From positions 1 through 64,000 of the IMG/VR virus record IMGVR_UViG_2571042740_000001: 64,000 bases of DNA; one strand, given 5' to 3'. This document shows positions 22,021-58,863 of this stretch, piece after piece; within the stretch, counting starts at the first letter, position 1, and each line of letters starts with the position of its first letter. The DNA comes from a virus (Duplodnaviria > Caudoviricetes). The position numbers and the translations under genes are program-made. A model generated the notes under the pieces. It was not told the origin of the DNA and made no database searches. It saw only the letters and a program-made list of their open reading frames with translations.

Positions 22021-23369
22021 TATTCACGCACCTCCGTCCATTCGTGGGTTTCTGTATCATACTGCATATATCCGTCAAGACAGATGACCCTGTGCATATT
22101 ACCGGGCGCAGTACTACTATTGCCGTCCCAGTTAGATTCCTTTGTCACTGCTGCCCATTCTGCAAGAGTGCCCTCATAGGTGATCTCCTGAATTGGAGTG
22201 TAATTTATCATATGAGCGCAGATCTTTGTTACATTATGGCTCAGAGTAAGGCTCCGAAGCGGTGTGCTAACAAAACAAAAACCCGGAACTATAGCACATT
22301 CTACTCTTGCTCTTGAAAGATAAGGGCAGCCCATGAAGATATATGTGCCGAGTGTAGTAAGTGTTTCTGGAAGTGTCACATTCGTAATATGCTGGTCCAC
22401 AAATGCTTTCTCTCCGATTGCGGTTATATTCGCCGGAATAATAAGCTCGGTTAGTCCGCCGTGTTCGTACATAAAGAATGCACGCTCTCCGATCTCGGTA
22501 AGAGTTGTCGGAAAGCTGACAGACTCCATATTTTTACATCGTTCAAAGTTACTCTTACCGATAGCGGTAATGCCTTCGGAAATAACAAGTGAACGGATAT
22601 TTTCATTCTCCCAGAACGGTGAATCACCAAGTTCATAATCATAGGTCACACCGGTACCATGAAGAAGCAGTTTTCCGTTCTCGTACAGTACATAGTGGAT
22701 ATGCTCGCCGCAGGTACCGATCTCAACGATACCGCCGATGATATCATCGACTTCGGTCTGAAGTGCCTCCACCTGATGACTGAGTTCTGCAATGGTCTGA
22801 TTGTTCTCCTGAACCTCTGCGATAAGCTGTGCAAGCTGAGACTGCATATCCGTTACTTTGCATTTACCGAGGATGCATTTGCAGTAGCCGCAGACATTCT
22901 TGTCCTCTCGATAATCGTACCAGTCACGCTCTGTAAGGTCGGTAGCACCCGGATTCAGACGAACCGCATACATGAGCAGTCTTGTTTTATATTCATCTGT
23001 CGGCAGTGACGGCAGGCTCGGATTCTCCGCAGGCGTACCGGGCGTTATCTCAAGAGATACATTTCGTACTGATTCTCCGACATCAAGCAGAATTGCGATC
23101 GCCACATAACGCGGTAGCGACTCATCCTGATACTCTGTAAGGTCAATGGTGTAGCGGGAGTCGTTGACGAAATAGTGGCCGTCGATCCATGCTTTGCCTG
23201 TGCCGAGCCTGACTTTGAGGCCGGTGTCGGCGGTGGTCAGCTTGAAACACTGCCCATATGTGTCGAGAATACCGTTGCAGATGATGCTACTGAGATACTC
23301 TGTGAAGTTCTCTGCCGTATAGGTTCTGTCAAGCCCTTTTGAATTGAAAAAACCGCATGAAAATGCCAT
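22020..23369 (-). CDS. Tail protein with BspA-type leucine-rich repeats (candidate receptor-binding protein)
   Basis: N-terminal FFNS...DRTYTAE. LRR_5 units such as SLVISEGITAIG and TLTEIGERAF. Confidence 0.8.
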   Translation of the reverse strand: MAFSCGFFNSKGLDRTYTAENFTEYLSSIICNGILDTYGQCFKLTTADTGLKVRLGTGKAWIDGHYFVNDSRYTIDLTEYQDESLPRYVAIAILLDVGESVRNVSLEITPGTPAENPSLPSLPTDEYKTRLLMYAVRLNPGATDLTERDWYDYREDKNVCGYCKCILGKCKVTDMQSQLAQLIAEVQENNQTIAELSHQVEALQTEVDDIIGGIVEIGTCGEHIHYVLYENGKLLLHGTGVTYDYELGDSPFWENENIRSLVISEGITAIGKSNFERCKNMESVSFPTTLTEIGERAFFMYEHGGLTELIIPANITAIGEKAFVDQHITNVTLPETLTTLGTYIFMGCPYLSRARVECAIVPGFCFVSTPLRSLTLSHNVTKICAHMINYTPIQEITYEGTLAEWAAVTKESNWDGNSSTAPGNMHRVICLDGYMQYDTETHEWTEVRE

Positions 23370-38232: not shown

Positions 38233-39873
38233 CTACAGAACGATCAGGTCATGATCGGGTTCGTCATAGACACTGCCCTGCATTTCATGGCGGATCACTC
38301 TGTCGAGTGCCATGATCCATGCGACAATGCCGTCGATTTTCTCAGTACTTTTCTTTTTGCTCGGTTTGATATTCTCCGCCGCATCAATTTCAGCGACCAC
38401 ATTTCCTGCCATCCATCTGAGAACGGGATTGCCGCCGTGAACGAACATACCTTCGAGTATGAGCTTGTACAGCTCCTTCATCGGCGGTGACATATCCTTG
38501 AAGCCCATGCCCATCGGAACAACGGTAAATCCGTCTCCCTCAAGGTCTGTGATCAGCTGTGTAGCGTTCCATCGGTCGGCTGCGATCTCCTTAATGTTAT
38601 ACATGGTGTGCAGTTCGTTGATCGTTTTACGAACAAAGTTATAGTCCACCACATTGCCCTCTGTGATATGAAAAAGTCCCATGCGCTCCCAGACATCGTA
38701 GGGAACATGATCTCGCCGCACACGCAGGTCAAGCGTTTCTCTCGGCAGCCAGAAGTGTGGGACAACGATGTATTTTTCGCCCTCTGTCAACGGCGGGAAC
38801 ACCAGAACAAAAGCGGTGATATCCGATGTGCTGGAAAGGTCCAGTCCCGCATAGCACTCTCTGCCTCGTAGCTTTTCAAGGTCGATCGGTAGATTTCCTC
38901 TGTCGTAGATATGCTCCGGGATCCATGCGACCGCACTGCCGACCCACTGGTCGAGTCTAAGCTGACGGAATACATTTTCTTCAGCAGGATTTGTCAGCGC
39001 CTCACGGTGCGCATCACGGACACGGTCAATGGTGATCGTATGCCCGAGAGACGGATTTGCTTTGTACCATGATTCCTCGGCGTTCCAGTCGTCATCATCG
39101 TTCAAGCCATATATAACAGGATAGAAGGAAGGGTCGATGCGTCTGCCGTCCAGAATATCTTTTGCTTTGGTGTGGTATTCGTAGCAGATGCTGTTGCGGT
39201 CAGTGCCGGCGGTGGTAATAAGGAAGTACAGCGGCTGTGTTCGTGCGTCGCCGGAGCCCTTTGTGAGAACATCCACAAGGCTACGGTTCGGCTGCGCGTG
39301 AAGCTCGTCAAGTACCAGACCGGATACATTCAGACCGTGCTTTGTGCCGACTTCAGCCGAAAGCACCTGATAGAATCCCACATTGCTGTAGTTCACCAGT
39401 CGTTTTGTCGCCGCCATGATCTTGGAGCGTTTCAGAAGCGCCGGCGTCATTTCCACCATGCGCTTTGCAACGTCAAAAACGATGGAAGCCTGCTGCCGGT
39501 CAGCGGCAGCACCATAGACTTCGGCGGACGGCTCGTTGTCGGCGTACAGCAGATACAGTGCAATTGCCGCTGCAAGCTCCGATTTTCCGTTTTTCTTCGG
39601 AATCTCAACATATGCTGTACGGAATTGCCGGGTGTCGTCTTCTTTTACAACACCGAAAATATCCCGGATGATCTGCTCCTGCCACGGCAGCAGCCAGAAC
39701 GGTTTGCCCGCCCATCTGCCCTTGGTGTGGCAGAGGTTTTCTATAAAGCGAACAGCCCTGTCCGCTTTTGCCGCATCGTAATGGGAGTCCGGCAGCATGA
39801 AGCGGGTGGGCTGATAATCGGTGAGTTTCGGATAATTCGCAGGTCTTTCTCTTGCTTTTGCTGTTCTTGCCAT
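38233..39873 (-). CDS. terL: Terminase large subunit
   Basis: EIPKKNGKSEL, LDELH, ITTAG, GLDLSST.D, KIDGIVA. Confidence 0.95.
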   Translation of the reverse strand: MARTAKARERPANYPKLTDYQPTRFMLPDSHYDAAKADRAVRFIENLCHTKGRWAGKPFWLLPWQEQIIRDIFGVVKEDDTRQFRTAYVEIPKKNGKSELAAAIALYLLYADNEPSAEVYGAAADRQQASIVFDVAKRMVEMTPALLKRSKIMAATKRLVNYSNVGFYQVLSAEVGTKHGLNVSGLVLDELHAQPNRSLVDVLTKGSGDARTQPLYFLITTAGTDRNSICYEYHTKAKDILDGRRIDPSFYPVIYGLNDDDDWNAEESWYKANPSLGHTITIDRVRDAHREALTNPAEENVFRQLRLDQWVGSAVAWIPEHIYDRGNLPIDLEKLRGRECYAGLDLSSTSDITAFVLVFPPLTEGEKYIVVPHFWLPRETLDLRVRRDHVPYDVWERMGLFHITEGNVVDYNFVRKTINELHTMYNIKEIAADRWNATQLITDLEGDGFTVVPMGMGFKDMSPPMKELYKLILEGMFVHGGNPVLRWMAGNVVAEIDAAENIKPSKKKSTEKIDGIVAWIMALDRVIRHEMQGSVYDEPDHDLIVL

Positions 39874-40346
39874 CAGCCGCCTCCCAGAAGTGCATCCATA
39901 TCGTCAACGGCGGCGTCCTTCATATCTGCACCGGCAGTGATACGGCTTCTTGCTGCCGGAGTCAGTCCGAACTGTTCTGCGATCTTGTTCATGATCTTCA
40001 GATAGGTCTGCGCAATGCTGACCTGCGGGACCTGCTGCCAGTAGCCGGATTTTGTTTTTACGATCGTGCCGTGCTGCGTCATGAATTCCTCGGCTTCCTT
40101 CCAACGGGCGTATGCCTGACAATAGGATGCGAATGCCGCCTGATCGACCTCGGTCAGCACACCGATCGCTTCAAGCTGTTTGGATAGCCTGCGCCATTCC
40201 TTTTTTGCTTCGGGCTCCAGCCACTTCGGACAGGGCGGTGCTTTTTTCACAGGCTTTGGTTCAGCCTCATTCAGCGGACGCTTGCCCGGATTGCCTTCCA
40301 GCTCTTTGATCGCAGTGGGTTTTGGTTTTCTGCCTCTCTGAGCCAT
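39873..40346 (-). CDS. terS: Terminase small subunit (P27 family)
   Basis: GRKPKPTAIKELEGNPGKRPL, FGLTPAARSRI. Confidence 0.93.
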   Translation of the reverse strand: MAQRGRKPKPTAIKELEGNPGKRPLNEAEPKPVKKAPPCPKWLEPEAKKEWRRLSKQLEAIGVLTEVDQAAFASYCQAYARWKEAEEFMTQHGTIVKTKSGYWQQVPQVSIAQTYLKIMNKIAEQFGLTPAARSRITAGADMKDAAVDDMDALLGGG

Positions 40347-40427
40347 CCGCATCACTCCTTCCTGTAAAAATGTGCATAAAGAAAAGAGCCTGCATTTGCA
40401 AGCCCTTTCTATGTATGTTTGCTGCCT

Positions 40428-40667
40428 TTAGTTGTACTCATGCATCAGGATCGCCAGCGCCATTTCTGCGGCTTCGTTCTGGGGCGGAACATCTTCGCCC
40501 CGGTCGTAGTTGTAAATGACCTTGCCCTCGACCTTCAGTGTCAGTTTGCTGATCCTGCCGCCCTCGATTCCGTACTGGCTGCCCTCGTCGTAGGCTTTCA
40601 CCCAGTAGTGAACCACCGTGTACTTTCCGTTGTCATTCGGGACTCCGATCGTACCTTCATGCCACAT
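40428..40667 (-). CDS. Small cassette protein
   Basis: GGAGG RBS, behind a repeat promoter. SQYGIEGGRISKL...YDRG. Confidence 0.8.
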   Translation of the reverse strand: MWHEGTIGVPNDNGKYTVVHYWVKAYDEGSQYGIEGGRISKLTLKVEGKVIYNYDRGEDVPPQNEAAEMALAILMHEYN

Positions 40668-40971
40668 AATGTTTTCCTCCGTATTTTCGTAGTTTTCGGC
40701 TCGGTTTCCCGTTCCGTTGTACACATATTAACTCTAAACATTGAATATATCAAGTGTGAGTAATAACAATGATCTCTGCGGTAGTTTCCGCTTGTTTGTG
40801 TACTTTACGCCCGCCCACAGGAGACGTGTAAACGTACTGTTTGGGGCTTGTATTTTCAGTCGAATAATGATATACTGTTAATGTGAGGTTATCATCTCAC
40901 ATATATGAGATGGTAGGCTCGTATCCCCCACAGTTATTGGGGGTAAAACTAAAGTTTTCTATTAATCTGAG

Positions 40972-41976
40972 ATGATTTTGCTCACATTTGAGTTGGTGGT
41001 ATTAATTATGGATAATATGTATTGGCCGGTATATAAAAATATCGAAAGAGAGTTTTTAAAAATTGCTGAATATATTAATATTTGTGACGAGCAGTTGAAA
41101 GTATATTCGTTTCATATTGCTGATTTAATTATTAGATGCGCAATTGAAATAGAGGCTATTTCAAAAGAATTATATAAAAGATTGGGCGGAAATATGAACC
41201 CAGTAGATGAGAATGGAAAAACAAGAGACTTATATTTTGATACGGATTGTTTAGGACTCTTAGAAGAAAAATGGGGCATCAGTAAAAAGAAGGTAAAAGT
41301 CTCTGCATTAGAAGTGTTTTTGACTAGAGAAGAAAATATAATTCTTACTCCTTTGAAAAAATCGAATAAGAGGGGATCAAGTGGCTCACAATGGAAAAAG
41401 GCGTATCAAGCATTAAAGCATGACAGGCGAAATTCACTAAAATGCGCAACTATTGAAAATTTAATTTCTTCAATGGCTGCCTTATTTATTCTTAATTTGT
41501 ATTATAAAGATGAGACATCTGATCTTGGAAGATTATATATGAATGATAGAACATTTGATAGTAGAGCCGGCTCAGACATCTTTAATGCATATGTAGTATC
41601 TGCAACGACTTTAAGAATGGAACTAGAAATGGATGATTTAAATATAATAAATATAGATGAAGAAAAGAGGAAAGAATCCATTTTTATTATAAAATACACT
41701 GACAGCACATACCGTGAAATGCATAGAGCTTTTTGCTTAGATTATTATGAGACCAAAAGTAACTTTGACAAATCAGAAGTTATACAAAAATATGTGGCAG
41801 AACATCCTGAATCCAAGGAGAAGTCTATGAACGAGATTTGCATTGAAGCTGGAGGACATGAATTATTATGCAATATTTTTGTTAATAGGCATTCTTTAAA
41901 TTCAAAAAACTATAGGACAGAAGTTATCGTTAATAAAAATGAGGATATATATCAAAAATTAAAATACATAGATTAA
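40972..41976 (+). CDS. Low-GC moron, HEPN-like candidate defence protein
   Basis: YW..YKN.E.EF, VYS..IADLIIR.AIEIEAISK, WKKAYQALKHDR. Own promoter near 40849-40876. Confidence 0.75.
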   Translation: MILLTFELVVLIMDNMYWPVYKNIEREFLKIAEYINICDEQLKVYSFHIADLIIRCAIEIEAISKELYKRLGGNMNPVDENGKTRDLYFDTDCLGLLEEKWGISKKKVKVSALEVFLTREENIILTPLKKSNKRGSSGSQWKKAYQALKHDRRNSLKCATIENLISSMAALFILNLYYKDETSDLGRLYMNDRTFDSRAGSDIFNAYVVSATTLRMELEMDDLNIINIDEEKRKESIFIIKYTDSTYREMHRAFCLDYYETKSNFDKSEVIQKYVAEHPESKEKSMNEICIEAGGHELLCNIFVNRHSLNSKNYRTEVIVNKNEDIYQKLKYID

Positions 41977-42142
41977 TATTTATCAATACGGATGGTTGAA
42001 GAATAATCATTATATAAATGATAGGAGCAACAATTTCGCAATCCATTTAATAATTGACATTAGCAACGCAATGCAGAAAATTGGAGGAGCGTAGGAATAC
42101 TACTCACTAAGCAAGACTTTATTACTATCACAGAATACATAA

Positions 42143-42176
42143 CGAGGCAGAGGCCCCTTTCGGGGGTTCTGCCTTT
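42143..42176 (-). terminator. Terminator hairpin
   Basis: AGGCAGAGGCCCC-TTTC-GGGGTTCTGCCT. Confidence 0.65.
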
Positions 42177-42180
42177 TGGC

Positions 42181-42525
42181 TTATCTGCCGGTCATCCATT
42201 CCCATTCGCTTTCGCAGGCGTCTGCGTACTCTGCCTCGAAAAGTGCATCGTCGTCGATCCATTCGGTTTCGTAGTCAATATCCTCGATGCCCTCAAAGGT
42301 CGTGCCGTTTGCGGCGGCATCTTCCTGCACAAGGCTGTCGGCGTTCTCCTCAACCCAAGCACTGAAGTCTTCTGCGTCGAGGTCGTCCTCGTTCTCGACC
42401 TCCAGTTCGTAGCCTTTATCCTCGGTGTCGTACCAAAGGATCGTGGCGCTTCTGATCGCCTCGCGTGCGTTCCAGTCGTCTCTGCCTGCCATTGCTCTTG
42501 CCTTTGCCATTCCGTAGCTGATCAT
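42181..42525 (-). CDS. Very acidic 114-aa cassette protein
   Basis: GGAGG RBS. About 35 D/E against 7 K/R by hand count. Confidence 0.8.
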   Translation of the reverse strand: MISYGMAKARAMAGRDDWNAREAIRSATILWYDTEDKGYELEVENEDDLDAEDFSAWVEENADSLVQEDAAANGTTFEGIEDIDYETEWIDDDALFEAEYADACESEWEWMTGR

Positions 42526-42717
42526 TGTTTTTTCCTCCGCTTTTCGTTGTTTTGGTGGGCTTTGCCCTTCCGTTGTGTACATATTAACTCTGAATGCGAA
42601 TAATAGCAAGCCGCTAAATGTACAGAAGATACGTGAAAAATGTTCGGCAGGTGTTGTGTATTATATGCCGCCTATATGAGGTTCGGCAGCCCCTCCGCAG
42701 AAGGGCTGCCCGCTGGT

Positions 42718-43080
42718 TTACTTGCTCTTGCGTCCCGCCTCGTAAGCCGCCGTGAGCGCCTCCTTGATCTCCCAGACGGCGACCTCGAAGAAGTCATCGT
42801 CGTCCTTCATGCGGGTTTCGAGGTCACCCCGCTGTTCCACGCTTATGATGTGGGAGAAGGCGATGCCGGTGATGACCTTATCCACCCCGGTCAGGCTGTC
42901 GAGGTGCGCCATTCGCAGTTCCGCCTTTGCCTTGCCGAGGGCTGTCTGGAGGTTGATCAGGCAGGTCTCCTTCGGGATGCCGTAGATCTCCGCGCAATCC
43001 TCATCGGTCATCTGCTCGGTGGCAGTGATGCCGTTCTCCAGCATCTTGATCTTCTCCTCGATTCTCTGCTTCTTGGTCAT
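42718..43080 (-). CDS. Cassette protein with C-terminal DUF6900-like domain
   Basis: LETRMKDDDDFFEVAVWEIKEALTAAYEAG. Confidence 0.78.
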   Translation of the reverse strand: MTKKQRIEEKIKMLENGITATEQMTDEDCAEIYGIPKETCLINLQTALGKAKAELRMAHLDSLTGVDKVITGIAFSHIISVEQRGDLETRMKDDDDFFEVAVWEIKEALTAAYEAGRKSK

Positions 43081-43325
43081 GTTTATGTCCTCCGTGTTTT
43101 TATTCCGGTGGGCTTTCCGCCCTTCCGTTGTACCCATATTAACTCTGAAAGCACATTATATCAAGCCACTAAAACTACAGAAGATACGTGGGAAATGTGT
43201 GGCGGGTGTTGTGTATATTACTTCGTAGTAGTCAAATAGTTGGTTTGATAAATCACAGTTCACTTGACAGACCTTTCCCAATTTGATATAATGTAAGCAA
43301 ATTATTGAGCAACTTGGAGGTCAAC

Positions 43326-43655
43326 ATGGATGAGAAAAAACTAAACCCATTTGAGATATTGAAACAGTATTCATCATATGGTCATAATAGTGGTGAACGT
43401 TATCAGGCCCATGTTTTGGGCACAACATGTGACAAGAATAATTATAACGCGATTCTCTTTGTTTGTTTACAGATTGATGTCAATCGAAATTATGCAGAAA
43501 TCATCATAGAGGGAGATGCACAGTATTTCAATTACAGTTTTAAATCCTCTTATTCAACCGACAATAGTGCATTCAAATTGATAAACAGAACACTTATCAT
43601 TAAAGGAACAGATAAATTCGGCAACAACATAACACTTGAAATAACTGAAAAATGA
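43326..43655 (+). CDS. Low-GC hypothetical moron
   Basis: Consensus TTGACA-17-TATAAT (43264-43292) and GGAGG RBS. Confidence 0.75.
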   Translation: MDEKKLNPFEILKQYSSYGHNSGERYQAHVLGTTCDKNNYNAILFVCLQIDVNRNYAEIIIEGDAQYFNYSFKSSYSTDNSAFKLINRTLIIKGTDKFGNNITLEITEK

Positions 43656-43736
43656 GTGCGGAACGGAGGTATGTGTCTTGGTACACTAACCTCCGTTTTT
43701 TACTATCAGTCCTATTATCCTATCTGCAGTTCAATA

Positions 43737-44090
43737 TCAATCGTCGAGAGGAATCGGCATCAGGATGTTGCCGACCAGTACGAAATCGTATGCCTGCCGG
43801 AAGAACTCCGTGTATTTCTCGGTCAGCTCCTGCGGCAGGTCGGTGAAGTCATCCTCGCCCAAACCGCAAAGGAAGAACGTACCCTTGATGACACCGTAGC
43901 CTTTGATTGGGCGGTTCCATTCCTGCTCCGGATGGTAGAGGGCTTCCTCCTCGCACACCAGTGCGACCGGATCATCGAAGGGGTAAATCGCCTGAATGTA
44001 TCCGCCGACCGTCTGCTGCAGGCTGTCAAGCTCTCCGCTGATCTCCTTTGCGTAGGGGCGCTTTCCCGGTTCAACAACTAAAATGTTCAT
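43737..44090 (-). CDS. DUF3846-like protein
   Basis: LVVEPGKRP...LQQTVGGYIQ...CEEEAL...NR...IKGTFFLCG. Confidence 0.8.
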   Translation of the reverse strand: MNILVVEPGKRPYAKEISGELDSLQQTVGGYIQAIYPFDDPVALVCEEEALYHPEQEWNRPIKGYGVIKGTFFLCGLGEDDFTDLPQELTEKYTEFFRQAYDFVLVGNILMPIPLDD

Positions 44091-44225
44091 GTGAATGCTC
44101 CTTTGTGTTTATTCCGCTTCTCTTGCGGTAGTGACATATTAACTCTGAACCGAGGATATATCAAGCATTATCGGCAAAATAAATGTGACAAACATCGCGG
44201 CGGAAATGCCGCTGAATTGTACATC

Positions 44226-44330
44226 GCACAAGAGCCGTACACGTGCGCTGTGTGGGGCTGGTTACCGAAAGGGATACCGTTTGGAGGATATCCGTCCCGC
44301 GCCACACGTTGCAACGTGGCGGCTCTGTGC
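44226..44330. other. Long imperfect hairpin, copy A
   Basis: GCACAAGAGCCG...CGGCTCTGTGC arms. Core shared with 45432-45505. Confidence 0.6.
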
Positions 44331-44333
44331 GCC

Positions 44334-44537
44334 TTATTCTTCGCCTTCGTACTTCTCGTGGATGATGCCGAGAATCTTGTCCTGTTCCTCACGTCCGACG
44401 CCGATGCTTTCAAGTGCCTCACGCGTTCCGCAGTCGGGGCAGATCGGGCTGTTATCCACGCGGGAAAGGGCTGGTCGGGCGGTATACGCCTGCCCGCATT
44501 TCGGGCAGATGCGCGGCTCGTTGTTGCGGTCTTTCAT
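44334..44537 (-). CDS. Small Zn-ribbon protein
   Basis: CPKCG...PALSR....ICPDCG.REAL. Confidence 0.8.
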   Translation of the reverse strand: MKDRNNEPRICPKCGQAYTARPALSRVDNSPICPDCGTREALESIGVGREEQDKILGIIHEKYEGEE

Positions 44538-44998
44538 CGCTGTACCTCCTTTGCGCTGATTTCGTAGGCGGCATCGAGGAACTTGGTATCGAAGCCGAAG
44601 TTCCGGTAGCCTTCCTCGCAGGTGCGGATGTAGGCAAGCGACGGAATGCCGAGGCTGCGTTCCTCATGCATGATGTATACGAAGGCGGTCAGCTTCTTGG
44701 TCTTGCCACTTGCCAGCTTCACCGGCAGGCGGACTTCCTTCTTGTAGTAGAAGGTCGGGCAGCCCTCGTAGGCATCCAGCCGTTTCTCGTCGGCTGCGGT
44801 GACCTCCCAGACCGCAATCGGAACGATGCCGTTCTTCTTCGGTTCAATGGTCAGGTACGCGCCTGTCTTGCTGCCCTTGTAAAGCAGCTCGTAATCGGGA
44901 ATCACCGTGATCCCGATGGGCTTTGCGCCGGGGCAGCGGTACCGCATCTGGCGGATGTTCAGGTTCGAGCCGTAGGCAAGGTAGTACTTCTTTTCCAT
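44534..44998 (-). CDS. Gamma-glutamylcyclotransferase (AIG2-like)
   Basis: YLAYGSNLN..QM..RCP, LDAYEG.P.FY. Confidence 0.9.
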   Translation of the reverse strand: MEKKYYLAYGSNLNIRQMRYRCPGAKPIGITVIPDYELLYKGSKTGAYLTIEPKKNGIVPIAVWEVTAADEKRLDAYEGCPTFYYKKEVRLPVKLASGKTKKLTAFVYIMHEERSLGIPSLAYIRTCEEGYRNFGFDTKFLDAAYEISAKEVQR

Positions 44999-45076
44999 GT
45001 CAATCGTCCTTTCCGAAGGAAGTCTCCTTCTACCACCCTGAGCCGCCCGTAGGCGGCAGGTGGGGAAAGGCGGCAG

Positions 45077-45271
45077 TTACTTTTCCGCCTTGCCCAGTTC
45101 GTATGCCTTGCGGAGCATCTCTCGGATGCCCCAGACGCTCACCTCCGGGAAGTCATCGGTGTCGTTCCAGCGGGTGTCCAGCCCGCCGCGCTGTTCCAGT
45201 GCGTAGTCCGCTTTCATTGCGATCTGCTCCAGCTTCTTGTCGGTTTCCGTTCCCCATTCGATGTTGCTCAT
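45077..45271 (-). CDS. DUF6900-like small protein
   Basis: LDTRWNDTDDFPEVSVWGIREMLRKAYELG. Confidence 0.78.
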   Translation of the reverse strand: MSNIEWGTETDKKLEQIAMKADYALEQRGGLDTRWNDTDDFPEVSVWGIREMLRKAYELGKAEK

Positions 45272-45431
45272 TGCTCGTTCCTCCGTGTTTGTTTTTCCGG
45301 TCGTTTTCCGTTCCGGTAGTCACATATTAACTCTTTTCGGGGAGAATAGCAAGCCGCTAAATGTACAAAACATCACGGGGGAAAATGTGCCATTCTTTGT
45401 GTAGTATATGCCTTGCCGTTGTTTGCGCCGT

Positions 45432-45505
45432 GCGCGCCCGTGTGCGGGCTTTTTCCGAAAGGGGCAGTTACTTGGAGGATACCCGTCCCGCCCCACACGG
45501 GGCGC
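45432..45505. other. Long imperfect hairpin, copy B
   Basis: GCGCGCCCGTGTGCGGGC...GCCCCACACGGGGCGC arms. Confidence 0.6.
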
Positions 45506-45549
45506 TGTGGGCGACTGTTTCGCCGCCCTTGCCCGTGGCGGCAGACCGG

Positions 45550-46494
45550 TTAAGGTCTGCCGAATCGGAAGGCGTTGTCGCCGGTAAGGTTCTGCGTCAG
45601 GGTTTCTCTTGCGGTGGCGAACTCGTCGCCAATGAAGCCCATTCTCATCAGCCAAGTCCGCATCGCGAACTTTTTGTTTTCTTTCTGCTGTTCCTTCGGG
45701 CTTGCGCTGCGCAGGTCTTTTGCCATCTGGCTCATTGCGAGGCAAAGCTGAATGTAGCTCTTGAGCTTGCCTGCGTGAAGCCCGTTCTGCTTGCCGCCTG
45801 CGGGCTTGTCGAACTGGAAAAGGCGGAATTCAATCGTGCCCTTTGTGAAGGTGGCGTGGAGGTTCAGCATATGGTAGCGGCTGTCGTTGTAGTGGTGGGT
45901 TCTGCCGTAGTCGCATCCCTGTGCGCCGTACCAGATGTCTGCAAGCTGCGCCATCGTGGTGGGCTTCTTTTTGTTGAGCTGCTGCAGGAAATTCGGGTTT
46001 ACCGTTCTGCAGTAGCGGTTCATTCGGCTGCTGTCAACCTTGATTGCTTCGGCGATCAGCGTTTCGTGGCTTGCCATCAGGTTTGCGAGGTTTCTCAGGC
46101 TCTGCGGTGTGTGTCCCGCTGCGCCGATGTGAATGTGAACTCCGCAGCCCCTTGTGTAGTCGCTCTTTGCGCCCGCCTTGCGAAGGCGTCTGATCAGCTC
46201 CTGCAGGGTTTCGATGTCCGCGTAGTGCAGGATCGGTGTGACCAGTTCGCACTTTTCGCTGTCCGGTCCGCTGATGCTGCAGTCGCGCTGGAATTTCCAC
46301 TCGCGTCCCTGCGCGTCCCAAGCGCTGTAGGTTTCGTAGCCGTTGCGGTGTGCGGTGTACTCGCTGCGGTTTGTTCCGAAGAACTCGGCGGCGAGCTTTG
46401 CGGCAGCCTTGCGGGTGATGTTGTTCATCTCAACCTCAACCCCGATCGTCTGCTCCTTCATTCTGTTGATCTGTGCCTGTGTCTTTGCGTTCAT
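45550..46494 (-). CDS. Putative amidoligase (COOH-NH2 ligase type 2)
   Basis: IGVEVEM, D.SI, ELVTPIL, CGVHIHIG, RYHMLNL, TIEFRLF. Confidence 0.9.
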   Translation of the reverse strand: MNAKTQAQINRMKEQTIGVEVEMNNITRKAAAKLAAEFFGTNRSEYTAHRNGYETYSAWDAQGREWKFQRDCSISGPDSEKCELVTPILHYADIETLQELIRRLRKAGAKSDYTRGCGVHIHIGAAGHTPQSLRNLANLMASHETLIAEAIKVDSSRMNRYCRTVNPNFLQQLNKKKPTTMAQLADIWYGAQGCDYGRTHHYNDSRYHMLNLHATFTKGTIEFRLFQFDKPAGGKQNGLHAGKLKSYIQLCLAMSQMAKDLRSASPKEQQKENKKFAMRTWLMRMGFIGDEFATARETLTQNLTGDNAFRFGRP

Positions 46495-46718
46495 GGTGGT
46501 ATCCTCCTGTTTGGTTTTTGGTGTGTTTTCCCTTTCGGTAGTCACATATTAACTCTAAACCGAGGATATATCAAGCCGCTAAAACCACAGAAATACGAGG
46601 AAAATACAGCCTTGATGATTGTGTATTTTACATTCTTGACACACTTGATTTTCTATGGTAATATTGGGTACGATGGAATAGGTTCTCACATTTTCCGGCG
46701 CCCCCGGAGGCTGTAAAA

Positions 46719-46949
46719 TCAGCCGCCGGAGATGACCTCGAACTCGTCTGCGCCTTCGATCAGCGCAAGGCTTCTGCCGTTGTCCCACTTCATATGAATG
46801 TTGCCTGCATCGTCGATGATCGCAACCGTTCCGGTTGTTCCGGGCGGCACGGGCGCGATGTCGTCCGCCATGCGAATCAGTCGGATGCGTGTACCTACGG
46901 GATAACGCTCGCGCAGCGCCTGAAGCTGTCTTTCATTCGGAAATTGCAT
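46719..46949 (-). CDS. DUF4314-like protein
   Basis: [11 protein letters not shown]....[30 protein letters not shown]. Confidence 0.85.
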
Positions 46950-47964
46950 CGTTTTCTTCCTCCTCGCTATTCTGAGCATCACGCTTTGCCTTCTGCTTCG
47001 CTTCCCAGCGCTCACGCTCCGCTTCATTGCGGAATGCGGTATGCCCGGAAAGGTTCTCCATCAGGCGCTTGCGGTCTGCCTTGCAGTCTTTTCCGTTCAG
47101 CCCAAGGCGGATCAGCCAGACGCGGAGCGAATACTTCTCGTTGCTGTCATCGACATCCTTTGCCTGAACACGCTTCTGGGTAATTGCCATCTTGTTCATA
47201 GCTGCGGCAAGCTTCATGAAAGTCTGCACATGCTCAGCATCCTGTGCCTGACCGAAGCCGTCGAAGGTGAGCTTGTCATCATCGAAGGATATTCCCATCA
47301 GCGGAGTACTCATCTCACCCCATTCCCTAACATATGAAATCAATTCATTCACACTCCGGAATACCTTCTCATCAAGGATCGAATCCACCAGTTCCTTGTC
47401 TGCAAAAAATGTACCGCCGGTTGCTTTGGAGATCAGAGGTCCGCGGGAGTGGATCATACAGATCAGATTTGTGAGGGACTGTACTGTATGCGCATTCAGG
47501 GAAAAAGAGATTCTTGTGCAAAGATACTCATCTGATTCAGATTCCGCATTTTTGTAAACTGAATCCCGGCTTTCATCCATATCGCTTTCCGGAATGATCT
47601 CAGGCTCCGATTCTGACACTTCTGCAGGCGATTCTTCGATGAAGGGCGGCTCATCTTCAAGCTGTTCATCATCACCCCATTCTTCTGTGGTTTCAGCCGC
47701 AAGACTGATTTCCGGAGGTGTCTCCACATGTGTATCGTCTTCGCTGATCAGCGCACCGATCATACCTTCTTTTGTAAGAATGCCGATAATCAGTTCATCT
47801 GCATCATTCGTTGTTGTCAGTTCGCCGTCTTTCTCAACCGTGAATTCCCCGACTTCAAAAGCGCATCTCGGTACAAAGGTATATCTCGCTTTCTTCCTCG
47901 TAAGCTCTTCCAGTCTCTTTACCAGTTCTTTGCGGTTTGGAATCTTCTGTGCATAAGTTTTCAT
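46933..47964 (-). CDS. Phage protein of the so-called virulence-related family, with acidic linker
   Basis: RKELVK...Y..VP.CAF.VG at the N-terminus. [16 protein letters not shown]...K..RK.LM.NLSG.TAFR at the C-terminus. Confidence 0.75.
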
Positions 47965-48187
47965 ATGTGTACGCTCCTTTTTCATTATTGCCGTCCAACC
48001 GTCCTATACGGTCTTCCCCGGCGGTAGTCACATATTAAGCTATTTTGCTGATAATATCAAGACTGTAAATCGGAGAATGTAAGGGGCTATATTGCCCATG
48101 TGATTGTGCATAGTACAGAATCTGAAATGCCGAACAGCTTACTTAGTATCAGTTCGTTCACAATTTGCTGCAGCGGCGGTACAGATA

Positions 48188-49468
48188 TCAGTCATCGGCT
48201 TCAGAATCATTTTCATCAGTAGGCATCTCTGCAACAGCTTCCTCGTATGACAGCTTCTGCCCATCACGGAGTACATATGCGACCTCGGCGGTCTGCTTCT
48301 CCCGACACCATGCGAGGTATCGCTTCACGATGACGTCCACGAATTTTGGGTCAAGCTCGATTCCACGGCAGACACGGTCTGTCTCACAGCAGGCGATCAG
48401 CGTTGAGCCAGAGCCGAGGAACGGGTCGAGAACGATACCGTTTGTCATGGTGCTGTTCTTGATCGGATATGCCATCAGCGGGATGGGCTTTGTGGTCGGA
48501 TGGTCGGGGCTGCTTTTCGGCTTGTCATATTCCCAGACAGTTGTCTGCTTGCGGTCGGCGTACCACTGATGCTTGCCCTTCTGCTTCCAGCCGAACAGAC
48601 ACGGCTCGTGGATCCACTGATACGGACTGCGTCCAAGCACCAACGAATTCTTCTTCCAGATACAGCAGCCGGAAAGCTGGAATCCTGCATCCTTGAATGC
48701 CTTTCTGAAATTCAGCCCCTCGGTGTCGGCATGCCATACATAGATGCTGCCGTCATCTGCAAGGCTGTCATACATACACTTATAGGCAGAGAGCAGAAAG
48801 TTATAGAAATCGCTGTCGCTCATGTTGTCGTTCATGATCTTGCCGGCGGTCTCCTCAACGTCCACATTGTAAGGTGGATCCGTCAGGACGAGGTTTGCTT
48901 TCTGTCCTTCCATAAGCTTTGTGTATGTCTCCGCGACTGTGCTGTCGCCGCAGATCACACGATGCCTGCCGAGTATCCAGATATCTCCCGGCTTGGAGAA
49001 GGTCGGTTTCTGAAGTTCCTCTTCCACATCGAAGCTGTCCTCTTTGACCTGCTTATCGTGTACCTGATTGAAAAGCTGCTCGATCTCCGGCGGGTCAAAG
49101 CCGGTCTTACCGAGGTCGAAATCGCTGCTCTGAATATCCTCCAGAAGTTCAGCGAGAAGGTTCTCGTCCCACGCGCCTGTGATCTTGTTAAGTGCAATGT
49201 TCAGCGCCTTCTCACGGACCTTGTCGATGTCCACCACAGCACACGGTACTTCCGTATAACCGAGCGCCGTCGCTACGGTCAGTCTTTGGTGTCCGCCGAT
49301 GATCGTCATGTCGGCATTGACAACAAGTGGGTCGGCAAAGCCGAATTCCTCTATGCTGTTTTTTATTTTCTCATATTCTTTATCTCCGGGCTTCAGCTTT
49401 TTACGCGGGTTGTATTCCGCAGGCTTCAGCTCCGAAACAGGAATCATACGCAGTTCTGCTGTTTTCAT
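48188..49468 (-). CDS. ParB-like domain fused to beta-class amino-DNA methyltransferase
   Basis: YNPRK, IIGGHQRL (ParB). TDPPY, HPTTKP, DPFLGSGST. Confidence 0.92.
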   Translation of the reverse strand: MKTAELRMIPVSELKPAEYNPRKKLKPGDKEYEKIKNSIEEFGFADPLVVNADMTIIGGHQRLTVATALGYTEVPCAVVDIDKVREKALNIALNKITGAWDENLLAELLEDIQSSDFDLGKTGFDPPEIEQLFNQVHDKQVKEDSFDVEEELQKPTFSKPGDIWILGRHRVICGDSTVAETYTKLMEGQKANLVLTDPPYNVDVEETAGKIMNDNMSDSDFYNFLLSAYKCMYDSLADDGSIYVWHADTEGLNFRKAFKDAGFQLSGCCIWKKNSLVLGRSPYQWIHEPCLFGWKQKGKHQWYADRKQTTVWEYDKPKSSPDHPTTKPIPLMAYPIKNSTMTNGIVLDPFLGSGSTLIACCETDRVCRGIELDPKFVDVIVKRYLAWCREKQTAEVAYVLRDGQKLSYEEAVAEMPTDENDSEADD

Positions 49469-49469
49469 C

Positions 49470-49769
49470 TCATTCCTCCCGTATATACATCTGCCGCAGC
49501 TCTGCGGCTCTTTTGGTGTTCGCATCTTTCAGCACCGTGACATCACGGAGCGTTTCTTCACTCAGAGGCTTGCCCTTCAGCTTTTCGGCAAGTGACCGGT
49601 ACTTGCGGATACTCCGGCGGAGTGCTGCATCGGTCACAGACACGATATACGCTTTGCCGCAATAGTCACAATTGAAGAAGCTGTATTCGATCTCTCCCTC
49701 ACGCTGCGTTTTCGGCTCCGGCACAAAGGCACAGCCGCAGGCATCGCAGCGGACATTCTGTTTTGTCAT
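49470..49769 (-). CDS. Small Cys-containing hypothetical protein
   Basis: CDACG and CDYCG; coupled in the operon. Confidence 0.7.
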   Translation of the reverse strand: MTKQNVRCDACGCAFVPEPKTQREGEIEYSFFNCDYCGKAYIVSVTDAALRRSIRKYRSLAEKLKGKPLSEETLRDVTVLKDANTKRAAELRQMYIREE

Positions 49770-55600: not shown

Positions 55601-55800
55601 TGTAGCACTCACATAGTTGGCATTTGCAACAGATGCCCACAGTTTTTTCTCGATATTACTTCATTTTCACTATCTCTGTAGCACTTGTAGCATTCCGTTC
55701 CATAACTTTTCCTATATTCTTCTTTATAGTAATATTTATATATTCACTTGCTACATTTGCTACATAAAATAGAATATATAAAGATATATATACTAGAAAC
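55601..55800. other. Candidate replication origin
   Basis: TGTAGCA at 55601, 55677 and 55686 facing TGCTACA at 55749 and 55758 across an AT-rich spacer, downstream of the primase. Confidence 0.55.
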
Positions 55801-55855
55801 AATAGAAAACTACAGAAGAAAGGCGCTTTTCAGCTTATGCGCCGGCCATAGGTCA

Positions 55856-58291
55856 TCACTCCTCATCGTCCAGAGGTACGAGATCCATTCCCGGTTCTTC
55901 TCCGCTTACCCAGGTGACATCGTTCACAAGTGACAGCGGATTCATATTGCCGGTCGTTGTCTGCTTCCACGGTCTGCGCTTGACAACGAGATATTCCAGA
56001 GAGAGCCGCTTATAGAAATTCTGAGAACTCTCATACTTGCATCCGTTGTCGCTGCACCATGTCTTGTAGTGACTGTATACCGCCGAGGCCTTGATCTCCG
56101 AGCCTTTTTCCTTTTTCAGGCACTGACGCATAAACTGCGCGATGCGGTCGGACTCCACACGATACTCCTCGGTAGCAGCCTTCACTTCCTCCGGCTCGTC
56201 AAGCCCCTCTGCCTTGTACAGGCGATAACCCTCGATACACCAGTTCAGGATGCCGGAGAGGTTCTCCGGCTGCATCAGTGTAGTCTTCAGCGTCTTGTCC
56301 TGTTCGTGGTCCTCGAAATGTCGGGTAAACGGAATGATCTTCAGTCTGCCGGATTCAAACAGTGTGCGTTCAGTGACATTGGGCAGATGGTTGGTGTCGA
56401 TGAAGATCTTCGCCTGCATATGGAATTCAAAATATCCCTCGTACAGAAAACGTGCTGTGATGCTGCCATTACCGGTGAGCTGCTTTGTCAGTGAGGCATT
56501 GATCGTCAGCTTTTGCTCCATTTCGGAAATGCCGACAAATCTTGCGCCGGCGAGACGTGCGACATCATCAGAGGAACCGTTGGACTGCCCGCGGAAATAG
56601 TTTGTGGCAAGCATATCCGGCTTGGCAGAACGGCCGTATTCTCCCATAACACGCAGGATCGTTTCGATGGTCGTGGTCTTGCCGTTTCTGGTCGTAGGGC
56701 CGAACATGATGAACAGACATTCCAGCGATGTATCGCCGGAGAGCGAGTAGCCGATTGCTTTCTGAAGATAGCGTGCAACATTCTTTCTGCCGACCATGAC
56801 CTCATCCACAAACTGGATCCAGCGCGGGCAGACAGCATTCGGGTCGTAATTGATGTGGCTGATCTTCGTAATGAGGTCCTTTGGGTCATGCTCATGAAAT
56901 TCCAGTGTCCGCAGATCGAGGGTGCCGTTCTCAAGGTTCAGTAGATAGACATTCGCATCAAAAGCGGACATCCTGATCGGATACACAGACTTTGCGTCCT
57001 CCACCATCGTCTTGCGGTTCTTTCGCATCTGGAGCTTCTGAACTCGCTTGATATATCTGTTGCGGGTGTCCTCGTCCCTGATCTGCAGTGCAAACGTATA
57101 CAGCAGATCGGCGAGGTGCTTTGCAAGCTCGGCTACGGCGAGAGCATTTTCGTCCGGCTGCCAGACCTTGCCGTCATAGACATACCAGACATTGCGGTCG
57201 CCGTTGAACCGTGCGATGGGTTTGAAATAATCGGCGAAAGCGTTGCCGATGCCGATCTCGTCGCGCTGATAGCGCGGATTCGTATGCGGCTGCATTTCGT
57301 CAAGTTTGAGGGTGATGCGGGAGAGATCGGGACGGAAACCTGCGTGTTCCTCCACTTCTTCTTCGTCCAATGCTTCAAAGTCATCCTCCGCCGATGTGTC
57401 GAAGATCGGTGTATAGATCTCAGATGTCGATGCGATGGCATTACGGATGGTGATCTGACCGTAAGTTCTGTCACCGGTCATACGATCCCACTTGTCACGC
57501 ATCAGACCCGATGAACGGAAGATACGGTCGATCTGCTCCTCCACATTGCCGCACCAGAAGCAGAGCATGGAAACAAACGCCATATCTGCATCAGATTGCG
57601 AATCATAGCCTTCCTCCCAGTGTCCCTCATAAAGCGCTTTGAACTTGTCACCGGAAGCAGAGGCAGATGCGTGCGCGATGACACCCTCGTCATCCAGATA
57701 GGATGCAGGCTCGATGGTCTTATTTGATACACGGGTGCTGCGCTTCATGAAGGTGTCGAGCAGATTGCGGAGCGTATCATCGTCACGCTCGACTGTGCCG
57801 GGGCGGAACATATCACCTGTGACCGTCACAAAGCGGTTGGTCGTTCCGGGCAGATAGACCTCCAGACCGTGCTTACGGTTGTTGATGTAGTACACTGTCT
57901 TATCGTAGGCGAAGTCGGGGCTGAGTTTGAAGAAGCCACGCAGTCCGGTTCCGGAGGGAGAGCGTTCAAAATATGCTGTGCTGAAGATACCGAGAATGGA
58001 TGCTGCCACATCATTCAGGCTTCCGTCCTCACGGATACAGTGGTCAATATCAATGGCACCAATGCCCTCGCTGACACGATAACCGATACCGTCCCAGCCG
58101 CCGATGGCGTATGCCTTCATCGCGGTCTTGAAGTCGGTGAAGGTGTCCGGCTCGTTTGTTTTGGCCATCTGTCTTGTTCTCGGGTCATAAGGCACCTTGG
58201 TCGGTCTGCCGCTGCGTTTTTCCAGTTTCCAGACACAGAAGGATGCCGACTGCTTCAGTGCGTCCGGGATATTTACAAAATTTACAGGCAT
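55856..58291 (-). CDS. Primase-helicase (PrimPol/NrS-1-like plus P4/D5 SF3 helicase)
   Basis: IDIDHC, E.SPSGTG, SQSDAD, MRDKWD, GPTTRNGKTT, TNHLP. Confidence 0.92.
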   Translation of the reverse strand: MPVNFVNIPDALKQSASFCVWKLEKRSGRPTKVPYDPRTRQMAKTNEPDTFTDFKTAMKAYAIGGWDGIGYRVSEGIGAIDIDHCIREDGSLNDVAASILGIFSTAYFERSPSGTGLRGFFKLSPDFAYDKTVYYINNRKHGLEVYLPGTTNRFVTVTGDMFRPGTVERDDDTLRNLLDTFMKRSTRVSNKTIEPASYLDDEGVIAHASASASGDKFKALYEGHWEEGYDSQSDADMAFVSMLCFWCGNVEEQIDRIFRSSGLMRDKWDRMTGDRTYGQITIRNAIASTSEIYTPIFDTSAEDDFEALDEEEVEEHAGFRPDLSRITLKLDEMQPHTNPRYQRDEIGIGNAFADYFKPIARFNGDRNVWYVYDGKVWQPDENALAVAELAKHLADLLYTFALQIRDEDTRNRYIKRVQKLQMRKNRKTMVEDAKSVYPIRMSAFDANVYLLNLENGTLDLRTLEFHEHDPKDLITKISHINYDPNAVCPRWIQFVDEVMVGRKNVARYLQKAIGYSLSGDTSLECLFIMFGPTTRNGKTTTIETILRVMGEYGRSAKPDMLATNYFRGQSNGSSDDVARLAGARFVGISEMEQKLTINASLTKQLTGNGSITARFLYEGYFEFHMQAKIFIDTNHLPNVTERTLFESGRLKIIPFTRHFEDHEQDKTLKTTLMQPENLSGILNWCIEGYRLYKAEGLDEPEEVKAATEEYRVESDRIAQFMRQCLKKEKGSEIKASAVYSHYKTWCSDNGCKYESSQNFYKRLSLEYLVVKRRPWKQTTTGNMNPLSLVNDVTWVSGEEPGMDLVPLDDEE

Positions 58292-58767
58292 TCGGGATGT
58301 CTCCTTTCAAGGAAAAGCTGTGCAATGACAGCGGTTTCAATACGGTTCATCGCATCGGCATCCGAAATATGCCCTGCATAGCTGCGGAGCGCATGCTTGC
58401 TGACAGTCGTTAGCTGCTCCGCAAGGATCATGGACGGATCCAGATGCTGATGAAGATCGGAAATACTGTCGGGGAACAGATGCGTATGGCACGGCAGCTC
58501 CGGCTTTTTCAGATGCCGCGTCATGGGAACGATATTGACCGTGTCGGCGTGTGCGTTGCCCATATCATTCGAGAGAATGATCACAGGACGAATGCCGCCC
58601 TGCACGCTGGAATCCGGATGACTGCCAAGATCCGCAAACCAGATGTCACCGCGCTGCGGTTTGTGTTCAGTTGTGTGATGCTGCACCGGCGCAGTGATAT
58701 ATTTTCTCGGATCGAAGCCGAGCCCTCTGTGGTATTCTGTTTTCAGGCGTTTATTCTTACGCGCCAT
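58282..58767 (-). CDS. PemK/MazF-family endoribonuclease
   Basis: RGDIWFADLG....SVQGGIRPVIILSND.GN, VPMT, LAEQLTTVSK. Confidence 0.85.
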   Translation of the reverse strand: MARKNKRLKTEYHRGLGFDPRKYITAPVQHHTTEHKPQRGDIWFADLGSHPDSSVQGGIRPVIILSNDMGNAHADTVNIVPMTRHLKKPELPCHTHLFPDSISDLHQHLDPSMILAEQLTTVSKHALRSYAGHISDADAMNRIETAVIAQLFLERRHPECL

Positions 58768-58863
58768 AGTTTTCACCTCCGTGGTCTGCGGCGTAACCGA
58801 ATTGTCGCCGCTTTGCCGTCTTTCTGTCGTCAAATAGAGATAGATCATACTGCATGTATAAGG

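Follow-up and report, generated by a model that had tools for sequence, protein, structure and literature searches.

Seven repeat units of about 150 nucleotides (nt) head small accessory genes in a prophage carried by the stretch of DNA analysed here, 64,000 nt of a Caudoviricetes record (IMG/VR IMGVR_UViG_2571042740_000001, positions 1 to 64,000; in this report "the window", to which coordinates refer unless stated otherwise). With a probability of about 0.6, these repeats are portable promoter-leader modules of the host sigma A type that drive and mobilize accessory genes, similar to the promoter-early stem-loop (PeSL) cassettes of T4-type phages. A single repeated promoter-plus-dyad unit heading separate cassettes had been proposed in an initial annotation of the window, and this unit proved to be conserved in many related phages.

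The seven repeat units

The pattern TTGMTA-N17-TAATAT has eight matches in the window, compared to a mean of 0.00 in 100 dinucleotide shuffles. Seven of them, the number initially annotated, lie on the minus strand at 40725, 42581, 43136, 44136, 45324, 46546 and 48032; the eighth (7208, plus strand) is located outside the prophage. A repeat finder returned one family with seven copies of 49 nt. An alignment of the seven units spans about 150 nt, and 33 of its columns are invariant. An nhmmer profile of the unit, run against the complete 3.65-Mb assembly, recovers only these seven (E 6e-35 to 1e-25), and the next best hit has an E-value of 0.78. The units are, in minus-strand order:

c7, 48002..48116, minus strand: heads the gene of a diverged 343-amino-acid (aa) amidoligase-like protein; the most divergent copy, identified by pattern, nhmmer and alignment
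c6, 46492..46631, minus strand: heads the Amidoligase_2 gene; exact dyad; no predicted leader hairpin
c5, 45269..45412, minus strand: heads the DUF6900 (64 aa) - GGACT - zinc-ribbon cassette; exact dyad
c4, 44098..44224, minus strand: heads the DUF3846 gene; 10-nt insertion between box 2 and the -35 hexamer
c3, 43078..43221, minus strand: heads the DUF6900 (120 aa) gene; exact dyad
c2, 42523..42669, minus strand: heads the gene of an acidic 114-aa protein; exact dyad
c1, 40665..40811, minus strand: heads the DUF7678 gene, the last cassette before terS

Two pairs of copies had been singled out as especially similar, and both stand: copies 44118–44166 and 46528–46576 (annotated at 44135 and 46545 as near-identical) are 92% alike over 49 nt, and copies 42564–42661 and 43119–43216 (annotated at 42550 and 43107) are 84% alike over 98 nt. 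The dyad ACARAA-N26-TTGTGTA is exact in the four copies in which it had been called clear (42622, 43177, 45365 and 46587, each shifted by one base). With up to two mismatches allowed, it has ten matches where 2.3 are expected. All seven copies are followed by GGAGG or AAGGAG and an ATG. The description of a hairpin leader and a Shine-Dalgarno (SD) sequence behind each copy thus holds throughout for the SD sequence, and for the hairpin in six of the seven; none is predicted in the amidoligase copy at 46546.

Architecture of the unit

Read 5' to 3' on the minus strand, the unit begins with box 1, (C)ATAATA(T/C)ACACAA, and a spacer of about 22 nt. Box 2, TT(C/T)TGTA(C/G)(A/T)TTTAG, repeats box 1 in inverted orientation. 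In addition, box 1 is similar to the -10/+1 region, the two forming a direct repeat at a distance of about 83 nt. The putative promoter consists of GGC and TTG(A/C)TA, 17 nt ending in AGAGT, and TAATAT, followed by GTG(A/T)AC(T/A)AC. The leader consists of a small hairpin, predicted in most copies, an A-rich run, (A)CGGAGGA, 7–8 nt and the ATG. A consensus of 124 non-redundant copies retains the two boxes, the two hexamers, the first part of the leader and the ribosome site. All of 127 copies have 17 nt between the -35 and -10 hexamers, and the letters kept best are the TTG of the -35 hexamer and, in the -10 hexamer, the A at position 2 and the T at position 6. Thus, the putative promoter follows the sigma A pattern.

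The boxes are located 14–34 and 37–68 nt upstream of the -35 hexamer. In 53 non-redundant upstream regions, the distance of box 1 to the -35 hexamer is 37 nt (3 regions), 46–49 nt (37), 56–59 nt (11) or 68 nt (2). The distances differ by blocks of about 10–11 letters, inserted or deleted in one of two places, the interval separating the boxes or that separating box 2 from the -35 hexamer. These steps of about 10.5 bp are suggestive of a bound regulator, and the block-wise spacing suggests a box-bound protein that would have to face the polymerase. Conservation of the dyad in relatives had been named as a check of the initial annotation; the inverted boxes are conserved and helically phased across copies, as expected of a common operator-like element in the promoters of a regulon. 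Most likely, judging from this pattern, the boxes would serve as the operator of a single shared regulator.

Two candidates for this regulator were considered. The CI-like repressor of the prophage has a promoter with perfect TTGACA-17-TATAAT hexamers and the palindrome ACACTGATAGTGT, and the immunity region contains no box motif, which neither links the repressor to the array nor excludes a link. For the long DUF6900 protein of the array, a role as a helix-turn-helix (HTH) regulator found no support: it has no Pfam HTH match even at E 5, and its model (pLDDT, the predicted local distance difference test, 80) matches no PDB fold at E <= 0.001. The model is helical, and the protein is missing from many arrays.

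The leader hairpin is located downstream of the -10 hexamer at the predicted transcript start and has no U-run; therefore, it is not a terminator. A hairpin of -4 kcal/mol or better is predicted in 36 of 62 non-redundant leaders, with differing stem sequences. Single-sequence folds were used here because MAFFT misaligned two stem registers, so that RNAalifold gave no consensus for 30 leaders. The hairpin probably protects the 5' end of the mRNA. At their other end, most cassettes are closed by a GC-rich hairpin.

Two further elements were observed next to the units. One is a conserved intergenic sequence, the spacer element, which is present twice in the window:

44226..44334, minus strand: first copy of the element (about 110 nt), behind the zinc-ribbon gene and immediately before unit c4
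45440..45550, minus strand: the other copy, which is weaker and follows the amidoligase gene

Relatives, too, have this element immediately before units (41 profile hits among the collected loci). A role as a structured RNA was considered and is not supported by covariation, with compensatory change in only one of 16 predicted pairs. An Rfam scan of 40000–48600 at E <= 1 returned nothing but a chance match to a microRNA. Additionally, a promoter-like site on the plus strand (46636–46664, TTGACA-17-TAATAT with a TG) runs antisense to the DUF4314 and amidoligase-like genes and could represent either an antisense promoter or what is left of an inverted unit.

Distribution in related phages

The exact core pattern of the unit is present in at least 163 stretches of IMG/VR viral contigs, often several times per contig and on one strand. 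A second set of 80 loci was fetched by TerL, the large terminase subunit, alone and was then searched with an iterated unit profile. This gave 239 hits, 232 in the TerL-fetched loci and the seven of the window, with 0–12 units per locus. The copies in these loci are located upstream of terS and terL and share, with few exceptions, the strand of the genes; a small number are arranged back to back in pairs and would drive leftward genes.

In all collected loci together there are 551 unit hits. A readable first gene follows 289 of them and yields 217 distinct proteins, which fall into at least 29 families. Representatives of nine families have a Pfam match (Amidoligase_2, DUF7678, DUF6900, Nmad4, DUF7698, DUF3846, GGACT, DUF4313 and a weak sigma-like match); for those of the other 20 no Pfam match was found. 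A conserved unit precedes diverse cargo.

The closest deposited phages are the 'NatCom' gut phages, filed under Ca. Heliusvirales, and phages of the Streptococcus phi-m46.1 kind, with a TerL identity of about 74%. In the main text of the two papers on Ca. Heliusviridae/Heliusvirales (supplements aside), the words 'promoter' and 'amidoligase' do not occur; the number of high-quality Ca. Heliusvirales genomes is put at 1032 in PMC11283538. The phage phi-m46.1 of Streptococcus pyogenes shares the primase-helicase-SAM (S-adenosylmethionine) synthetase-HNH-methylase-terS synteny with the window and carries the core twice, as CTGGATAT-N12-AGAGTTAATATGTACACAAC, in which CTGGATAT serves as the -35, followed by an SD sequence and an ATG (L374:5290-5372 and 10700-10780). 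One copy precedes ORF31 in the matching slot between methylase and terS; neither copy has boxes or a hairpin. We take the core as a portable sigma-A-type element that is either old or exchanged between phages.

Two further searches say little about the spread. In a genome collection, 0 of 120 loci among the matches listed for GCTTGMTA-N12-RNGKTAATATR fit the unit profile at E <= 1e-3, a pattern too loose to be informative. A blastn search with one unit found three records in a phage collection and none in 72,556 plasmids, a method too insensitive for a query of 150 nt.

Variation of the array between relatives

The number, content and order of the cassettes vary even among phages with TerL proteins 98–100% identical to that of the window; order and content are therefore not fixed in relatives. 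Between terL and position 40735, inside the c1 promoter, the relative L167 and the window share 97% identity. Beyond this point the 114-aa cassette (92% identical, window 42183–42627) directly adjoins the DUF7678 cassette, and the DUF3846 and DUF6900 genes stand in reverse order compared to the window. Both breaks of homology, at 40735 and 42627, are located within units. L167 has no block with the low-GC 334-aa gene; this block (~40852–42177, ~1.3 kb), which close relatives do not have, is therefore an insertion in the window. In three other relatives (L168, L169 and L171), the 114-aa cassette occupies other positions of the array.

The same variation is seen in assembled contigs of RNA libraries. 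Contigs of three studies join 42661–42665 to 43737–43741 and thus have neither the long DUF6900 cassette nor the 116-aa gene. One contig joins 40851 to 42178, so it is without the 334-aa block.

Units account for 12.4% of the array. Pooled over the 80 loci, homology blocks have 27 distinct 5' ends, and 10 of them are located within a unit (binomial p ~0.001). Of 27 3' ends, only 2 are, and the remainder lies outside, several at gene stops. The array had been predicted to be shufflable by recombination. In agreement with this, cassette content differs in close relatives and homology blocks begin inside units.

Proposed mechanism

The inverted boxes, the sigma-A-type promoter CTTG(A/C)TAT-17-TAATAT, the usual hairpin, the A-rich spacer and the strong ribosome site would together form one expression unit. 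Such a unit of about 150 nt would turn the gene or genes behind it into a self-contained cassette. Because the units resemble each other, recombination between those of co-resident or co-infecting phages is proposed, which would swap, delete, insert and reorder cassettes. The slot between methylase and terS may in this way have become a hyperplastic array of accessory genes. The boxes would act as the operator of one regulator, encoded by the phage or the host, that switches all cassettes together.

Prophage setting and genes of the array

The prophage is of the siphovirus type, is read on the minus strand and resides in a gut-type Clostridia genome. Its structural genes include Sipho_tail, SPP1_Dit and an HK97-type capsid, and it carries serine recombinases and a CI-like repressor. 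From the far prophage end inward, two serine recombinases (14396–16821), lysin, holin, tail genes, capsid, portal, TerL and TerS follow each other. The recombinase genes are arranged in tandem and overlap (14396–16821, minus strand) beside the lysin gene. Among the tail genes, a BspA-type leucine-rich-repeat protein (22020–23369, minus strand) may be a receptor-binding part.

The array occupies the single slot between the methylase gene and terS. Upstream of it, the minus strand encodes the ParB-methylase, NrdG, NrdD, HNH, SAM synthetase and a D5-type primase, as well as a PemK-like protein, an SNF2 helicase, a VRR-NUC protein, DUF932 and a family A polymerase. The PemK/MazF-like toxin domain lies inside the replication module with an N-terminal extension of 64 residues (58282–58848, minus strand). 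Between the genes of the primase and the SAM synthetase, an AT-rich gap (55640–55860, minus strand) contains a box-2-like TTCTGTAGTTTT and no full unit; in phi-m46.1 a unit core is located at the matching place. The prophage continues past the window with DUF2800, a 244-aa sigma-70-like protein, an ImmA/HTH protein and a divergent CI-like repressor. The gene of the sigma-70-like protein stands right behind the immunity region; ahead of it are about 600 nt of non-coding sequence that include an open reading frame (ORF) of 60 aa.

The genes and features of the slot and its borders are as follows:

48188..49525, minus strand: ParB_N + N6_N4 DNA methylase gene, upstream border of the slot
46933..47964, minus strand: diverged amidoligase-like protein, 343 aa, isoelectric point (pI) 4.6; no Pfam hit, phrog_2443 at 5.8e-38
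46719..47027, minus strand: DUF4314 gene (ORF as listed; likely start ATG at 46953, behind GGAGGA)
45550..46494, minus strand: Amidoligase_2 gene (PF12224, 2.8e-56)
45077..45271, minus strand: DUF6900 protein, 64 aa
44534..44998, minus strand: GGACT / AIG2-like gamma-glutamyl cyclotransferase
44334..44537, minus strand: zinc-ribbon protein, 67 aa (phrog_2945)
43737..44090, minus strand: DUF3846 protein, 117 aa
43305..43655, plus strand (opposite to the array): low-GC gene, 116 aa, with its own terminator
42718..43080, minus strand: DUF6900 protein, 120 aa, with a helical N-terminal extension
42181..42525, minus strand: acidic 114-aa protein, 35 of 114 residues D or E (31%), pI 4.05; no family matches
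40972..41976, plus strand (opposite to the array): low-GC gene, 334 aa
40428..40667, minus strand: DUF7678 protein, 79 aa
40375..40410, minus strand: terminator-like hairpin followed by UUUUCUUUAU, a U-run, between the DUF7678 stop and the terS start
39873..40355, minus strand: TerS, small terminase subunit (Terminase_4), downstream border of the slot
38233–39873, minus strand: TerL

Starting at the ATG of the unit shortens three genes relative to their longest ORFs, to 79 aa (DUF7678), 120 aa (long DUF6900) and 114 aa (acidic protein). The low-GC genes on the opposite strand between units, noted in the initial annotation, are real ORFs (40972–41976 and 43305–43655). The GC content is 0.30 in 41001–42000 and 30% in the 334-aa gene; for its protein, Pfam, PHROGs, NCBIfam and PADLOC all gave no match. 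The 116-aa gene has a promoter at 43264–43292 (plus strand) that matches the consensus at 12 of 12 positions with a TG extended -10, and it looks like a moron.

The amidoligase, GGACT and zinc-ribbon genes make up a triad that recurs in phages. A function of the cassettes in host takeover or anti-defence had also been suggested, and this found no support. None of the 10 proteins scanned with PADLOC, which models defence and not counter-defence, gave a match, and all 111 relatives of the acidic 114-aa protein are unnamed or 'hypothetical'.

Alternative explanations

The units might be middle promoters of a phage-encoded sigma factor instead of host sigma A. A candidate is available in the 244-aa sigma-70-like protein (L165:2796-3530, minus strand, window coordinates 66796–67530; Sigma70_r4_2 3.6e-13, TIGR02937 8e-13). 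The conserved positions of the unit extend beyond the hexamers, and the core is shared by phages from hosts of different classes. A homologue of the sigma-like protein is present in all three complete unit-bearing IMG/VR records of a first set, and in one relative a sigma-like gene is itself headed by a unit. However, no homologue (E <= 0.01) was found in three of three complete GenBank phages with a unit or core, nor in two of two 90%-complete records of a second set, one of which has two units. No unit is located upstream of the sigma gene of the window prophage, and the hexamers, A2 and T6 of the -10 hexamer and the invariant 17-nt spacer obey the rules of sigma A. A dedicated phage sigma factor is quite unlikely. 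The units could instead be activator-dependent late promoters, with a late activator of the phage bound to the phased boxes, the last unit driving the packaging and structural operon and the small genes expressed late. Of the 80 TerL-anchored loci, 68 contain terS, and in 49 of these the ATG of a unit is located 95–840 nt upstream of terS on the same strand; in five more it is 1.2–2.0 kb upstream. Sites of class I activators are spaced in steps of about 10.5 bp from the -35 hexamer, as are the boxes at 14–34 and 37–68 nt, and the 72-nt gap that precedes terS shows no other promoter. On the other hand, terS is never headed by a unit (0 of 217 first proteins are TerS homologues), and in the window the hairpin with its U-run separates the last cassette from terS. 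In the remaining 14 loci there is no unit upstream of terS; the upstream sequence is shorter than 600 nt in eight of them and 1 kb or longer in six. Since the promoter matches 9 of 12 consensus positions, an activator may not be needed. A role as late promoters appears unlikely.

A further explanation regards the cassettes as prophage morons, e.g. for superinfection exclusion or host fitness, with constitutive host-type promoters that are active in the lysogen; the repeats would merely be shared promoters. Promoters of the sigma A type would fire in the lysogen unless repressed, and cassette sequences of relatives are found in RNA-library contigs from four runs, in which carry-over of DNA is possible. 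However, the two clear morons of the array (334 aa and 116 aa) are on the opposite strand and have their own consensus promoters and terminators; their transcription would therefore collide with that of an active array. The conserved, phased boxes favour regulation, and the immunity region without the box motif is neutral as to a link between the array and the CI-like repressor. This explanation is very improbable.

Several observations also weigh against portable sigma-A-type modules as the preferred explanation. The TAATAT hexamer with its flanks (AGAGTTAATATGT) is stricter than a sigma A promoter needs, and the core is also present in the S. pyogenes phage; both could point to a dedicated phage factor. 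No stable hairpin is predicted in about 40% of the non-redundant leaders. A few ancestral indels could mimic the spacing classes, so the phasing is suggestive and not proven. The scan with the exact core pattern is biased by the -10 context that it demanded, and for this reason only the TerL-anchored set is unbiased. Many ends of homology blocks derive from distant relatives, where local alignments may fade. Finally, the RNA-library contigs of the four runs cover the array and cross the promoters, so that no start, strand or level can be read from them; contig depth in these libraries is not comparable between genes.

Comparison with known systems

PeSLs are described from hyperplastic regions of T4-type phages as motifs that combine a sigma-70-like promoter, a stem-loop and an SD sequence and mediate modular shuffling (Arbiol et al. 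2010, PMC2839356; Comeau et al. 2014, PMC4122927). The likeness to T4-type early-promoter cassettes, drawn already in the initial annotation, fits the description in PMC2839356. In both cases a repeated intergenic motif with a sigma-70-type promoter, putative in the window, an SD sequence and a start codon is located in a hyperplastic region ahead of small genes of no assigned function; a counterpart of the PeSL stem-loop is predicted in six of the seven window leaders and in 36 of the 62 non-redundant ones. Likewise, the motif is where close relatives differ by insertions, deletions and replacements. The differences are considerable. PeSLs are found in lytic myoviruses of Gram-negatives, whereas the present phage is temperate, of the siphovirus type and from Clostridia. 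The unit is longer (about 150 nt) and its sequence is conserved across many phages. Furthermore, it has a pair of phased inverted boxes upstream and is confined to the single slot between methylase and terS, and its hairpin follows the -10 hexamer at the transcript start and has no U-run.

A second comparable system is EGeRS2 of plasmid p576 (pLS20 family), a repeated regulatory sequence in an establishment regulon (Val-Calvo et al. 2021, PMC8708921). There, too, one conserved regulatory sequence precedes several variable operons of a Firmicutes mobile element. Strong promoters and one repressor lead to transient expression on entry, and the operons are mosaic (PMC8708921). In contrast to the array, EGeRS2 belongs to a plasmid and not a phage, its repressor is a ribbon-helix-helix protein, and the unit showed no sequence likeness to any of the 72,556 plasmids queried.

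The CUP repeats of IncN and IncW plasmids are promoter-bearing elements of ~100–150 bp ahead of anti-restriction and leading-region genes and are under a common repressor. They resemble the unit as repeated promoter-bearing elements that head genes, but they belong to Gram-negative plasmids, and the unit has no sequence match in the plasmid collection. Integrons share with the array a series of small, unrelated and swappable genes separated by a repeated element. Integron cassettes, however, are generally promoterless, whereas every cassette here has its own putative promoter, and the repeat is a promoter-leader and not an attC site. No integron-type integrase is encoded beside the array; the serine recombinases (14396–16821) are at the far end of the prophage. 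From these comparisons, the unit appears to work like PeSLs and the repeats of plasmid establishment regulons and to belong to neither by lineage or sequence. Its distinctive features are the long conserved sequence, the phased inverted boxes, the single slot by terS and the spread in common gut phages.

Significance

The profile of about 150 nt provides a sequence handle for the variable accessory genes of very common gut Clostridia phages. Sorting by cassette yields at least 29 families, most of them with no assigned function, for screens of counter-defence and host takeover. The phased inverted boxes are a concrete candidate operator for the pull-down of a regulator.

A more far-reaching interpretation, which is doubtful at present, regards the unit as a family-wide 'expression socket' of globally common gut phages (Ca. 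Heliusvirales and relatives), in which one factor would read the phased TACACAA/TTGTGTA boxes and switch the whole array. If so, the array would be the phage counterpart of the establishment regulons in plasmid leading regions, with many putative counter-defence genes as cargo, and the promoter core would be old or mobile enough to be shared with Streptococcus phages. As portable promoter-leader modules, the units would carry the principle of the PeSLs of lytic T4-type phages, regulatory repeats as seams of recombination, over to temperate phages whose hosts are Gram-positive gut bacteria.

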